Source of the DNA: Eledone cirrhosa
Taxonomy: Eukaryota
Direction: 5' to 3'
Assembly: GCA_964016885.1 (NCBI GenBank)
Contig: OZ024743.1
Location: 98,022,001-98,086,000 of the forward strand
Length of the DNA stretch: 64,000 nucleotides
This document shows positions 7,739 through 51,026 of this stretch, in pieces (the first letter of the stretch is position 1; every line of letters begins with the position of its first letter). Under the pieces are notes generated by a model. The model searched no databases and was not told where the DNA came from. It was given only the letters and a program-made list of their open reading frames with translations. The translations under genes and the position numbers were made by a program.

Positions 7739-7799
7739 TATTTTATCTGACGAAAGCGTACTAAAATGTTAGTACCCTTGAAATACGTATAATAAAATA
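7739..7799 (+). ncRNA. Type I hammerhead ribozyme (family I)
   Basis: tattttat CTGACGA aagcgtacta-aaatgt-tagtaccctt GAAA TACGTA TA ataaaata. Intact core, 8-bp stem I, palindromic stem III, AUA triplet ending at 7791. Confidence 0.85.
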
Positions 7800-8411
7800 A
7801 ATATGCTTTTGTAAAGATATTTTCCATTTATTAATATTGTTAATATATATATATATACTTCATGAGATCGTTATGGGAATTAATCATAAGAAATTGTTGA
7901 AATGCAGAATTAATGATACCTTTAACAGTTTTTAATGTGAGTTTTCTATACTTTACAGGTGATGCACAGCCTTCTTTTTGCTGATGTATCAATGTTGTCA
8001 ATGTACTTAATTAAAATATATTTTCAAAGTGTGAGTTCCTGAAGCACAGGAAGTGTCTAAATTGTGTGTATTCATGATATAGCTGGGGGAGACATTTAAG
8101 TGAAATGTGGCCGCGCCTTCAATTACCGGAACGAACGGCGTGTTGTGATATTCTGCTCCACTATATTCAGTAGAAATGAGTTACGACGCCATTAATGCCA
8201 AGCGGTGTCATTGTCTTGGACAACATTGGTGATTTGAAATAAAGAAAACGTGCATCCTTGGACCATTGCTCGTTTCCACAACACACATTGAAAGAGATGA
8301 GTGTAACAACAGAGTAGACCCATAGAAACAGAGGTAGTAAGTGGGAGGAAGGGGAGTCTAGAGGAAGGGTATAACAGAGGTAGTAAGTGGGAGGAAGGGG
8401 AGAGAGAGAAA

Positions 8412-8611
8412 NNNNNNNNNNNNNNNNNNNNNNNNNNNNNNNNNNNNNNNNNNNNNNNNNNNNNNNNNNNNNNNNNNNNNNNNNNNNNNNNNNNNNNNNN
8501 NNNNNNNNNNNNNNNNNNNNNNNNNNNNNNNNNNNNNNNNNNNNNNNNNNNNNNNNNNNNNNNNNNNNNNNNNNNNNNNNNNNNNNNNNNNNNNNNNNNN
8601 NNNNNNNNNNN
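8412..8611. other. Assembly gap (200 N)
   Basis: Run of n between (GA)n and (GT)n tracts. Confidence 1.
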
Positions 8612-9299
8612 TGTGCGTGCGTGTGTGTGTGTGTGTGTGTGTGTGTGTGTGTGTGTGTGCGTGCGCGCGCGTGTGTGTGCGTGTGTGTGTGTGTGTGTGT
8701 GTGTTGTGTGTGTGTGTGTGTGTGTGTGTGTGTGTGTGTGTTATTTATCCTTCAGTACCATCATTCTAATGAAGGACACTGCCTATTAATTTCAAATAAT
8801 TTTGATAATAATCATAAATTTGGAAAGATTTAGTAATATAACTTTTCATTGTTAAGCTGCTGTTTGGAGAATATCTTAACTAAGGCTTTCACATAAAATT
8901 ATGATGGAAGGTTTTTAGATAATTATAAACACTATACAATTTTGCATCGTAGAATCTGGATTGGTTCAGGCGATTTTGTATGAAGTGGGTTAACAAGCAG
9001 TGGTAAGCATATTCGTTGGTATTTTCAGCCATTAACTGGTCTTCACAAAAGCCTAAATGACATCGATACCAGTTAAATAAATCGACCCAGTATCGGACTG
9101 TTACATTACTTCATCAACTCCAAAAAGGGTAATGCAACTTTTACTACAGGTAGCGTAAAGGCCTACAACATATTCTTCATGATATTCTATATGATACTTT
9201 AACAATGTTTTAGGTGTGAAGGTGTGTGTGTATTAGAGCTCACACCTAGGCAGGTTTTGCTGGCCTCCTCCAAGGTATATCTCGCTGAGGTGTCTTGGG

Positions 9300-9465
9300 T
9301 AATTTAATGATAGGGACCCAGTCTTATCATCTCATTTCTACAGCTGAGTAAAGTGGAGCAACGTGAAATAAAGTGTCTTGCTCAAGGAAACAACACATCA
9401 CCCGGTCCGAGAATTGAACTTACAACCTTTCGATTGCAAACCCCACTAAGCCATGCGCTTTCACA
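9300..9465 (-). mobile_element. tRNA-derived SINE (second family)
   Basis: Minus strand reads gcatggcttagtgg (A box) ... agttcaattc (B box) ... ccttgagcaagacacttt ... cagctgtagaaatgag. Confidence 0.65.
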
Positions 9466-9479
9466 CTGTTTTAGCTGGG

Positions 9480-47829: not shown

Positions 47830-48858
47830 TCCGAGCCACCGAGCCACTGAGCCAGCCTGTCTACCGAGCCACTGAGCCAGCCTGTCTACCGAGCCACCGA
47901 GCTAGCCTGTCTACCGAGCCACCGAACCAGCCTGTCTACCGAGCCACCGAACCAGCCTGTCTACCGAGACACCGAACCAGCCTGTCTACCGAGACACCGA
48001 ACCAGCCTGTCTACCAGAGCCACCGATCCAGCCTGTCTATCGAAACACAGAGGCAGCCTGTCTATGGGGCCACCGAGCTAGCCTGTCTACCGAACCACCG
48101 AGCTAGCCTGTCTATCGAAACACAGAGGCAGCCTGTCTACCGAGCCACCGAACCAGCCTGTCTACCGAGCCACCGAACCAGCCTGTCTACCGAACGACCG
48201 AGCTAGCCTGTCTATCGAAACACAGAGGCAGCCTGTCTACCGAGCTACCGAACCAGCCTGTCTACCGAGCTACCGAACCAGCCTGTCTACCGAGCTACCG
48301 AACCAGCCTGTCTACCGAGCCACCGAACCAGCCTGTCTACCGAGCCACCGAACCAGCCTGTCTATCGAGCCACCGAGCTAGCCTGTCTATCGAAACACAG
48401 AGGCAGCCTGTCTATCGAAACAGATAGGCAGCCTGTCTACCGGGCCACCGAGCTAGCCTGTCTATCGAGCCACCGAGCCAGCCTGTCTATCGAAACAGAT
48501 AGGCAGCCTGTCTACCGGGCCACCGAGCTAGCCTGTCTATCGAGCCACCGAGCCAGCCTGTCTATCGAAACAGATAGGCAGCCTGTCTACCGGGCCACCG
48601 AGCTAGCCTGTCTACCGAACCACCGAGCCAGCCTGTCTACCGGGCCACCGAGCTAGCCTGTCTATCGAAACAGATAGGCAGCCTGTCTACCGAACCACCG
48701 AGCCAGCCTGTCTACCGGGCCACCGAGCTAGCCTGTCTATCGAAACACAGAGGCAGCCTGTCTACCGGGCCACCGAGCTAGCCTGTCTACCGAACCACCG
48801 AGCTAGCCTGTCTACCGCGCCACCGAGCCAGCCTGTCTATCGAAACACAGAGGCAGCT
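47830..48858. repeat. 25-bp minisatellite (GAACCAGCCTGTCTACCGAGCCACC-like)
   Basis: Period 25 (e.g. 47921 and 47946), with several unit variants. Confidence 0.97.
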
Positions 48859-50783
48859 TCTATGTCAAATCATAAAGTATGAATGAAGTACTGGGGATTG
48901 ATTTACTCATTTTTCCCCTACACCCCTAATACAGACCTTGCCCTAAATTAGAACATACTATATATAAGTTTGGGAATACAGTTTCCAATCTGACGATCAG
49001 TTATTTTTAAAATGTAATTTTAAAGAGTTGTGAATCACAAAACCTGATTTAAAAGTAAATAGAAGTCACATTCTTAGTATCGTGTTGACTCAAGTTACAC
49101 AAACCTCAAACTTACTACACATTCCAATAAACAATTTCTTCATATTTCCACTAAATGCCGCAAACTGCCTCAAAGTTTCACATAGAAAACTTAATGATGA
49201 CTGCGTGTCAACAAGGCCCAAGCTTGTCTCTATGATTTATACGCTTTGTAGAATTCTTGATAAATATAAATGCAAACTGTATCACGACTTGAAAAAAAGC
49301 AAATAGTTGCTGTAAGATTCAGTTTATTTCACATCATTAACCTTTCAAAGTATGCATTCGAATATGAATATGTGTATTCAATAGATTCTGCACACCCAAC
49401 TGCACACCCAACTGCACACACACGTATGTATATATATACAAACACTGAAATATATATATATTCAAGAATATCTGCATGTGTATATATATAGATGCGTGTG
49501 AGTCTGCTTTTGTGTAAGTACGCGCACACACACACACACACACACACACACACACACACACACACACACACACACACACACACACACACACACACACACA
49601 CACACACACACACACACACACACACATATATATAACTATATATTTCTTTTGATTTGCGAATTATATCAGCGTAAATATATTTCCTGGCCTGTTCCATTGT
49701 ATTTCGGTATATTTTTTCTTTCTTATTTTGTGTTTTTATTCTGTTCTATTTTATATCCTTTATTTGATTGGTTTTTAGGCTTGTTTTGTTTCTTTTTTTG
49801 CTCTTTTTTTTTTTTGTTTCTGTTTTGTTTTTCTCTCTTGATCTCTAGTCGCTTCTATTCAACGAATTGACGTTTAAACATATAATGAGAAAGCTATCCC
49901 TTAATAAATAGGCTTGTCAGGTATATGAGCCTGGATAAATACAACAATATGGTCGATCTAGAAAGATTGGGCCAAAGTAGTGAGGAGGTGTAGTGTTCCA
50001 AACATTCGCTTCAACAAATATCTTATCCATGATTGACTTTATTCGATTGTTTTTAATACAGTTCCAAATATTGTCCATCATTCTATCGTTTTACTTTGCC
50101 TAGTGTACTAAATACATCACTTTGTTTTCAAATTCTGAAGTTGAATATTATCCTATCTCTCTCTCTATATATATATATATATATATATAGATATATATAT
50201 ATATATATATATATATATATATATATATATATATATATATATATATATATATAGGAAAAACTGTGACCACGACGGCAGAGCTCAAGCCGTTTCGACGGCT
50301 ATTTCTGGACTATCTGACAAGAACAGGTTATTAGGGTAGATTTGTGGAGGGAAGCTAAAATAGCTGCATATCGCTTGCCCAACCAAAGCAACTCAATATA
50401 TCATATGTATGTGTGTGCGTGTATGTGTGCGTATATATATATGTGTGTGTGTGTGTGTGTCAGTCCAGAAATAGCCGTCGAAACGGCTTGAGCTCTGCCG
50501 TCGGGGTCATACTTTTTCCTATTTCCCACTCTACTACCCTAAGTATTGAGTACTTTGGTGCGTTATGGTCCATCTAGTTCCTTACCACAATTCCTTTGTT
50601 ATATATATATATATATATATATATATATATATATGTATATATATGCAGAGGTTATATTTAATTTGTTGGGATTCAACAAGCTTAAACATTTTTTTTTTAT
50701 AACTGATATAAAGCACTCAACAAGTTAGTGGAGTAAATATACAATATATTAATAAATGGAAACTATATTTATAAAACCCTATT

Positions 50784-50849
50784 TATTTTATTATACATAT
50801 TTCAAGGGGAACCAAGGCAAATTATGGTGCGCTTTCATCAGATAAAATA
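50784..50849 (-). ncRNA. Type I hammerhead ribozyme (family I)
   Basis: Minus strand: tattttat CTGATGA aagcgcacca..tggttccccttGAAA TATGTA TA ataaaata. Confidence 0.82.
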
Positions 50850-50960
50850 CAGATTTGTTTTATAAATAAATATTGACATACTCGGAAAAAAAGACAACCT
50901 TACCAACCGTTAAGGTGTTTTTTTCCGGGTATGTCAATATTTATTTATAAAACAAATCTG

Positions 50961-51026
50961 TATTTTATCTGATGAAAGTGCACCATAATTTGCCTTGGTT
51001 GCCCTTGAAATATATATAATAAAATA
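50961..51026 (+). ncRNA. Type I hammerhead ribozyme (family I)
   Basis: tattttat CTGATGA aagtgcacca..tggttgccctt GAAA TATATA TA ataaaata. Confidence 0.82.

Follow-up and report, generated by a model that had tools for sequence, protein, structure and literature searches.

The 'minimal' hammerhead ribozymes of Penelope-like elements (PLEs) possess a palindromic 15.2-16.2/loop 3 segment and a larger helix II and have been modelled as dimers. According to the parts of Cervera and De la Peña 2014 (PMC4209133) used here, they occur as thousands of mostly solo copies derived from truncated PLEs, with opposite-strand pairs 100-700 bp apart and strong variability with covariation within a genome. For the Hydra clade of PLEs, the available sections and files of Craig et al. 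2021 (PMC8557442) report insertion in (TA)n, canonical type I hammerheads near the 3' end of the pseudo-long terminal repeats (pLTRs), A or U at position H17, a short self-complementary helix III and the protein motifs RWK, DKT, CxCx5C, CxxC and CxH as clade signature; File S2 lists one Hydra family in Octopus bimaculoides. Here we describe a window of 64 kb of genomic DNA (the whole stretch analysed, 64,000 nucleotides; 37% GC, without long genes and rich in microsatellites and short repeats) containing six related type I hammerheads, termed family I, copies A to F. We propose that these are the 3' pLTR hammerheads of a (TA)n-targeting PLE, most likely of the Hydra clade, left behind as 5'-truncated insertions in an animal genome, and assign this reading a probability of about 0.6. 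PLE origin in the wider sense, including non-autonomous or other-clade variants, is highly probable. The six copies are:

7739..7799, plus strand: hammerhead A; stem I 7739-7746/7792-7799, core 7747-7753, stem II 7754-7779, GAAA 7780-7783, then TACGTA and UA; predicted cut 7791/7792, AATAAA 7791-7796, (TA)n/(GA)n upstream
17001..17067, minus strand: hammerhead B, a divergent subfamily with stem II base GGA/TCT; stem I 5' strand/core 17067/17059, predicted cut 17009/17008; surrounding element at about 16955-17207, flanked by two (TA)n tracts
19732..19802, minus strand: hammerhead C, the most divergent, with TGCGCA and a long stem II; stem I 5' strand/core 19802/19794, predicted cut 19740/19739; surrounding element at about 19698-19958, flanked by (TA)36 and (TA)32
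39097..39157, minus strand: hammerhead D; stem I 5' strand/core 39157/39149, predicted cut 39105/39104
50784..50849, minus strand: hammerhead E, left arm of an inverted pair, stem II damaged; stem I 5' strand/core 50849/50841, predicted cut 50792/50791
50961..51026, plus strand: hammerhead F, right arm of the inverted pair; stem I 5' strand/core 50961/50969, predicted cut 51018/51019
50737..51073: head-to-head inverted repeat with E and F (340 columns, 93.5%), composed of two family I ends, each 5'-truncated, that meet at about 50905

All six copies show the pattern TATTTTAT-CTGAYGA followed by GAAA-N6-TA-ATA(AA/GG)ATA, and in each the CUGANGA / GAAA / UH core is surrounded by three helices and open at helix I. 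A first-pass annotation of this DNA had reported the motifs, and their positions and strands proved correct throughout, as did the sequence pattern, the self-complementarity of the hexamers following GAAA (from A to F TACGTA, TATGTA, TGCGCA, TATATA, TATGTA and TATATA, with G-U pairs allowed) and the position of the predicted cut behind an AUA triplet in copy A. A type I descriptor with exact core, written after the motifs had been seen, matched exactly these six sites across the window. In 200 dinucleotide shuffles in 1-kb blocks it gave a mean of 0.02 matches with stem I of at least 3 bp and none in any shuffle with at least 6 bp. A covariance model built from the six copies scored them at 71-87 bits and found no seventh in the window, the next match, at 27.6 bits, falling on other hammerhead families, and an nhmmer scan of the window did not reveal a further copy either. 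No hammerhead was detected in the window by Rfam at gathering score; at E<=10 there was none among the best 150 of 233 rows, and the matches listed there were microsatellite-driven miRNA models. The exact family I pattern was found neither in public metagenome contigs nor in viral contigs. These six are real hammerhead-type motifs of a known kind.

The retroelement context, which the first-pass annotation missed, places the motifs in a known class. A (TA)n tract lies downstream of the cut at 51, 54, 42, 51 and 58 nt in A, B, C, D and F, such that the spacing typical of the Hydra clade is present in five of the six copies; E has no adjoining (TA)n. Further (TA)n tracts lie upstream at -86, -148 and -164 in A, B and C. 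The 3' end is thus fixed at (TA)n, while the 5' ends vary from copy to copy. Four copies stand alone and the other two form one inverted pair, just as truncated PLEs are mostly solo with some pairs on opposite strands. Since a fixed 3' end, ragged 5' ends and inverted pairs make up the anatomy described for truncated PLEs (PMC8557442 and PMC3846280, in the parts used here), we read family I as derived from a PLE. Five copies (A, B, D, E and F) contain TATGTCA about 36-39 nt upstream of the core, which in A, B, E and F reads as a splice-donor look-alike of the type G/GTATGT and could be a mark of the pLTR intron known from other PLEs.

The same anatomy bears on a derivation from non-LTR retrozymes, elements made of tandem 150-450 bp repeats that give rise to circular RNA, of which family I copies would be solo monomers. 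Metazoan retrozymes resemble family I in their type I hammerheads, low GC, weak helix III, better performance as dimers and likely PLE descent, and solo PLE-derived retrozyme monomers exist (PMC7229834 and bioRxiv 10.64898/2026.07.22.740005, each as far as the portions drawn upon extend). However, no tandem array of family I is present in the window, E and F are inverted instead of direct, the ends are fixed at (TA)n with variable 5' truncation, and the helices follow neither the canonical 6/4 bp arrangement nor the canonical loop 1-loop 2 geometry. We consider this origin very unlikely. The fixed RNA polymerase III head of Sm-alpha-type short interspersed elements (SINEs) was not seen either: the 5' ends vary, and ARAGORN, which would miss a degenerate tRNA-derived head, reported no genes.

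Family I has very high repeat depth in public sequence data. Summed contig depth over the core of D reached about 7e5 compared with 1.6e2-1.3e3 over an adjoining open reading frame (ORF) remnant, values that represent repeat depth at 80% likeness in four runs (DNA or unlabelled, at most two samples) and not copy number; the best-matching runs contained 0.23-0.27 of the words, and no RNA run was among those listed. Upstream of the D core, depth drops to 1.9e5 and then to 2.8e4 in the next two 94-nt bins. Extreme depth was seen over two short stretches, 39062-39155, i.e., the family I core, and 37252-37289, a 38-nt piece that we take to resemble a SINE tail.

Using Hydra-type probes only, four clear remnants of Hydra-clade PLE ORFs were detected in the window, one of them accompanied by a hammerhead of a different family:

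37772..39034, minus strand: broken, 5'-truncated Hydra-clade ORF remnant with a trace of the reverse transcriptase (RT) thumb and a GIY-YIG-type endonuclease; starts right after the (TA)n of copy D
54013..54360, plus strand: C-terminal remnant of a Hydra ORF with hammerhead; ORF end 54013-54105, about 190 nt of 3' untranslated region (UTR)
54296, plus strand: core of the hammerhead behind this ORF end, with CAATTG and GUU; (TA)n at 54362
33934..34416, minus strand: internal Hydra-clade PLE ORF remnant
61515..62058, plus strand: broken Hydra-clade PLE endonuclease remnant

The segment 54013-54360 serves as a control within the window, as it shows the order ORF end, hammerhead, (TA)n. The remnants match proteins that carry the five Hydra signature motifs, and these published motifs favour Hydra over a Neptune-like assignment. 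Pfam at E<=0.01 recognised neither the remnants nor eight full-length relatives; when the limit was relaxed to E<=1, RVT_1 was reported for 3 of 17 members and GIY-YIG likewise for 3. A PDB search gave matches only at E values of at least 2.5, and the ESM Atlas returned unnamed clusters along with GIY-YIG clusters (23% of members). The Atlas clusters nearest to one window ORF are eukaryotic, with Mollusca the commonest group on very few records; the host animal is probably a mollusc.

From a survey of public metagenomes, 78 Hydra-type loci (L001-L078) were kept out of 477. Their 66 intact ORFs contain RWK in 54, DKT in 63, CxCx5C in 63, CxxC in 61 and CxH in 59 cases. A hammerhead was found 0-700 nt 3' of the ORF at 37 of the 78 loci, or at 31 of the 48 with at least 250 nt of room, and 31 of these 37 hammerheads have A at H17 and 30 a GUA triplet. 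Grouped into families, 25 of 32 have retained a self-complementary segment. Two loci, L036 and L043, share an identical TATTTTAT-CTGATGA...TA/ATAAAAT (slash, cut), which is the stem I and cut context of family I, and L068 combines an N6 palindrome with AUA. As judged from these sequences, family I likely belongs to the Hydra clade, whose published hammerheads (PMC8557442, same sections) further resemble it in that U precedes GAAA in many, stem I is AT-rich in several and inverted, 5'-truncated copies occur. Family I differs in its 6-nt segment closed by U-A (AUA, where GUA is the rule at the Hydra loci), in its 8-bp stem I, in the plan of stem II and in its absence from the published consensi consulted. 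As an aside, the metagenome contigs hold many near-complete Hydra-clade PLEs, their 66 intact ORFs being far above the six new consensi published, and several possess both pLTR hammerheads, about 2.4-2.8 kb apart.

Stem II consists of a 3-bp base next to the core (AAG/CTT, GGA/TCT or GAG/CTT), a mismatch, which is T·C in F and otherwise C·C, and an upper helix; C has a different, longer stem II. The first-pass annotation had described stem II as variable yet paired; it had missed the 3-bp base and the C·C mismatch, and E is damaged, with a calculated stem II energy of -2.9 kcal/mol against -5.9 to -10.8 in the other copies. Two-sided changes affect six of nine pairs in stem II but none of eight in stem I and none of two in stem III. 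The change count comes from six related rows, two of them nearly identical, with the structure derived from the same rows, and carries no significance test. Paired cells amount to 93% in the six copies versus 86.5% after shuffling and 37-54% for slid controls. Loose ends of public reads and contigs at D, 24 of about 1,550 rows, revealed more subfamilies with 3 bp, C·C and upper helix, one of them AGG-C...C-CCT, as well as an E/F type with intact stem II pairing. The label 'minimal' fits family I poorly, as stem I has 8 bp plus a distal extension and stem II about 9-10 bp; hammerheads in PMC4209133, as described in its accessible parts, have 4-5 bp in stem I and the G10.1-C11.1 pair, and in family I stem I is also invariant across divergent subfamilies.

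Helix III is predicted to be weak in the monomer, where two pairs and a tetraloop come to +4.7 kcal/mol, whereas the modelled 8-bp duplex between two copies lies at -2.2 to -10.5 kcal/mol; family I therewith shows the palindromic, monomer-weak helix III/loop 3 by which Cervera and De la Peña define PLE hammerheads. The octamers of stem III are compatible between copies at 6-8 of 8 pairs. Cleavage as dimers, as claimed in the first-pass annotation, is consistent with these energies, but an obligate dimer can be proposed by analogy only. Because E and F are located on opposite strands, they do not form a double hammerhead within one transcript; the remaining four lie alone, and a twin on the same strand is missing for all six. 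B and C, 2.7 kb apart on the same strand, could pair at 7 of 8 positions. For the monomer to cleave usefully, the weak helix III would have to be kept closed by the long stems I and II, helped by a tertiary contact formed by the C·C mismatch and the distal extension. Stem I indeed extends by 4-12 further bp beyond an internal loop in the constrained folds, the C·C position recurs from one subfamily to the next, and in the part of PMC7229834 cited an axolotl hammerhead whose helix III has two pairs and a tetraloop reached 22% monomer cleavage. The same axolotl motif is far better as a dimer, however, and the predicted cost of helix III and the self-complementary segment retained at the Hydra loci speak against the monomer as well. 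We regard this variant, which concerns the mode of cleavage only, as rather unlikely.

Several findings weigh against the proposed origin or against an active ribozyme. The family I model R1 scores the Hydra-locus hammerheads with only 25-34 bits, outside stem I and core no alignment with family I was obtained for L036, L027 and L068, and two family I motifs gave no match in those published Hydra and Naiad consensi that the files of PMC8557442 provided. Pair 10.1-11.1 is A-U in three copies and G-U in three, in place of the conserved G10.1-C11.1 of PLE hammerheads, a pair often absent in Hydra hammerheads too. In all six copies the hammerhead-constrained fold lies 3.0-13.1 kcal/mol above the minimum free energy; activity may therefore be low, as reported for the class in the consulted part of PMC4209133. 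In a Poseidon PLE, hammerhead mutations had no effect on insertion in vitro and no RNA-seq ends were seen at the cut, as far as the available part of PMC11167929 shows. Coding traces of the Hydra type were not found upstream of A, B, C and D (best scores at most -1.2 bits, shuffled maximum 6.0, control remnants 9.4-44.6), and Pfam was blank upstream of the family I copies examined, which may be too truncated to include an upstream ORF. None of 15 joints inspected out of 58 read or contig joints links the 3' end of the neighbouring ORF to D. A reading of D as the pLTR of the adjoining ORF at 37772-39034 is not supported by these joints, and the 3' region of that ORF holds no trace of family I. 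Upstream of D and B, visual inspection had suggested PLE-like peptide fragments, for which hidden Markov models (HMMs) gave no support. As no family I copy is tied to an ORF, PLE parentage is inferred.

Two alternatives draw on this gap. In the first, family I is a non-autonomous mini-PLE consisting of the pLTR only, amplified in trans by a Hydra-type RT/endonuclease, with the hammerhead and poly(A) signal as cis signals. Trans pairing between subfamilies may then occur and would also freeze stems I and III, in line with the cross-compatible octamers and the identical stem I; the lack of coding traces upstream of A-D fits, depth over the D core is hundreds to thousands of times that of the neighbouring ORF remnant, and in rotifers pLTRs alone suffice for mobilisation in trans, as stated in the part of PMC3846280 used here. 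The depth ratio says little, however, since the neighbouring ORF need not be the parent, and differing 5' ends together with the gradual upstream decay of depth are expected from truncation of a longer template. We consider a mini-PLE unlikely. In the second alternative, which we view as improbable, the parent belongs to another (TA)n-targeting clade, Neptune, Nematis or Naiad, with the same mechanism. Naiads prefer (TA)n and occur in cephalopods, and a microsatellite bias is reported for Neptune; on the other hand, Naiads lack canonical hammerheads (all according to the consulted sections of PMC8557442), all ORF remnants detected in the window are Hydra-type, although so were the probes, and the Hydra loci reproduce stem I, H17 = A and the spacing. 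A Hydra-clade parent is our preferred reading.

The first-pass annotation had further viewed family I as functionally constrained and diversified. Mean pairwise identity is 98% over the stem I 5' strand and CUGAYGA and 88% from GAAA through the stem I 3' strand, but falls to 53% in the upstream part, 68% in the downstream part and 56% within stem II, and outside the core B and C resemble the other copies at about 45-55%; these values point to a fixed core common to deeply split subfamilies. Constraint is thereby upheld, though it most likely acted on transposing master elements and not on these six genomic copies, as they carry private damage, i.e., a G at 39100 in D and the altered stem II of E. 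In D, two A>G changes leave stem I paired as U·G and abolish AATAAA. Since only this copy has G at 39100 (the family A makes up more than 99% of public read depth), the U·G pairs are attributed to decay, and covariation is rejected for 39100. With respect to the palindromes, all are self-complementary, but TATGTA and TATATA are probably CpG-deamination products of TACGTA, which leaves TGCGCA as the only truly compensated one. Individual maintenance of the six copies by host selection as regulatory ribozymes could explain why core and stem I are intact in all of them. Against this stand the private lesions in D and E compared with the read majority, the repeat-rich context in which no host gene was identified, and the picking method, which would miss degenerate copies, though the covariance model and nhmmer scans gave no decayed seventh. 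It is the least probable of the explanations discussed.

For a Hydra-type parent, the following course of events may be envisaged. In the transcript of an active pLTR-ORF-pLTR element, two copies would pair via the 8-nt self-complementary segment, and, going by the topology, each active site would be composite, one copy providing stem II and its partner the strand of stems III and I that is cut. Cleavage after AUA is predicted to yield 2',3'-cyclic phosphate and 5'-OH ends. As stem II lies within one copy, it would be free to drift by compensatory change between subfamilies, while the sequence of stem I would be frozen, probably since its 3' strand and the cleavage nucleotide spell the poly(A) signal AAUAAA. 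Reverse transcription would be primed at (TA)n and usually end after 100-250 nt, leaving solo, decaying and mostly inert copies.

Including family I, the window contains about 18 hammerhead motifs. At 17391-19644, inverted arms of 584 bp (17391-17968 and 19076-19644, 93.5%) each end in a damaged hammerhead of related type (cores 17501, minus strand, and 19537, plus strand; TGATCA, AUA, AATAAA 4 nt past the cut), and on the right this element and copy C abut tail to tail on a common (TA)32 tract. Hammerheads with a long helix II of about 60 nt lie at 30039-30361, 24883-25032, 28148-28313, 35523-35691 and 53679-53722. One type consists of an inverted pair (30176 minus, 30225 plus; GUA) and a damaged third copy, the other of 28177 plus and 35662 minus (CGCGCG, GUC) and a fragment at 53.7 kb; by eye, both have a long insert in common. 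Further hammerhead-like motifs are located at 20326 and 63869 on the minus and 35971 and 62521 on the plus strand, two with GAAA-GAAC-TT, i.e., a non-palindromic loop, one minimal with a CTGGTGA core and the fourth, which is doubtful, a remnant situated 500 nt past what is left of a Hydra ORF.

A SINE-like repeat of 140-200 bp, which we presume to resemble cephalopod SINEs and which may point to an octopus-like host, is present in more than ten copies (10354-10557, 15190-15391, 16544-16734, 22955-23108, 42108-42447, 51426-51622, 54770-54935, 62574-62763 and others). Perfect or near-perfect palindromic elements of the miniature inverted-repeat (MITE-like) or fold-back kind, often beside (TA)n, occur at 146-434, 1074-1695, 35358-35466, 62927-62970, 63171-63525 and 63853-64000, and a motif family of palindromic elements recurs at 254-397, 1759-1825, 35206-35283, 50251-50311 and 50462-50522. 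Long minisatellite arrays occupy 42863-44798, 47838-48857, 51827-53306, 11449-12357 and 60075-60593 (periods 17, 25, 16, 11/45 and 29). The long ORFs at 42.7-44.8 kb and 56-57 kb are repeat artefacts.

AATAAA begins at the cleavage nucleotide H17 in five of the six family I copies, a position that fixes the 3' strand of stem I and, via pairing, also the 5' strand. Three other hammerhead types in the window have AATAAA about 4-8 nt past the cut, and three types do not. At the Hydra loci, 75 hammerhead matches were grouped into the 32 families mentioned above. In 12 of them an A[AT]TAAA has its first base within -1..+8 of the cut, versus 3 of 214 other 10-nt intervals (Fisher p 1e-9), with the reservation that this interval was chosen after the locus hammerheads had been seen and that the families are related to each other. 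Composition-preserving shuffles gave a mean of 1.9, and none of 20,000 reached 12; upon stricter clustering, 8 of 20 families are positive against a shuffle mean of 1.2. In these counts, L017 is probably a false match, and the positives L037 (upstream) and L073, whose loops are short, could stem from other PLEs. The remaining 20 of the 32 families lack the hexamer at the cut. In family I and in elements of the L036/L008 type, it begins at the cleavage nucleotide itself.

This arrangement suggests that cleavage competes with polyadenylation. More tentatively, PLE hammerheads might generally be poly(A)-site switches, in which AAUAAA or AUUAAA in or just behind the stem I 3' strand would be hidden or destroyed by folding or dimer cleavage. 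The mammalian Clec2 3' UTR hammerhead is similar in that cleavage parts the RNA from its poly(A) signal (PMC6765202, in the part used here). There, however, the cut is upstream of the signal in a host mRNA, whereas in family I the hexamer at a retroelement terminus is split or buried in stem I. We found no paper linking hammerhead, AAUAAA and Penelope in a search that was thin on subscription papers and supplements, where a prior report may exist.

With family I, a class known from the 2014 and 2021 descriptions gains one more abundant family, as a specialist would expect, and the portion of PMC4209133 considered here already covers essentially all points of the first-pass annotation. Its value is that of a test case, as the function of PLE hammerheads is 'still unclear' in the wording of PMC8557442, within the sections consulted. 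The link between cut site and poly(A) hexamer in family I, three other window types and 12 of 32 Hydra families provides a concrete hypothesis. Dispensability of the hammerhead for insertion in vitro, as reported in the available part of PMC11167929, is compatible with a function in selecting the RNA 3' end, or with no function. If the hypothesis holds true, the ribozyme would govern read-through of the upstream pLTR or decide whether a transcript becomes a polyadenylated mRNA or serves, non-polyadenylated, as transposition template, and PLE hammerheads would have a role independent of insertion chemistry.

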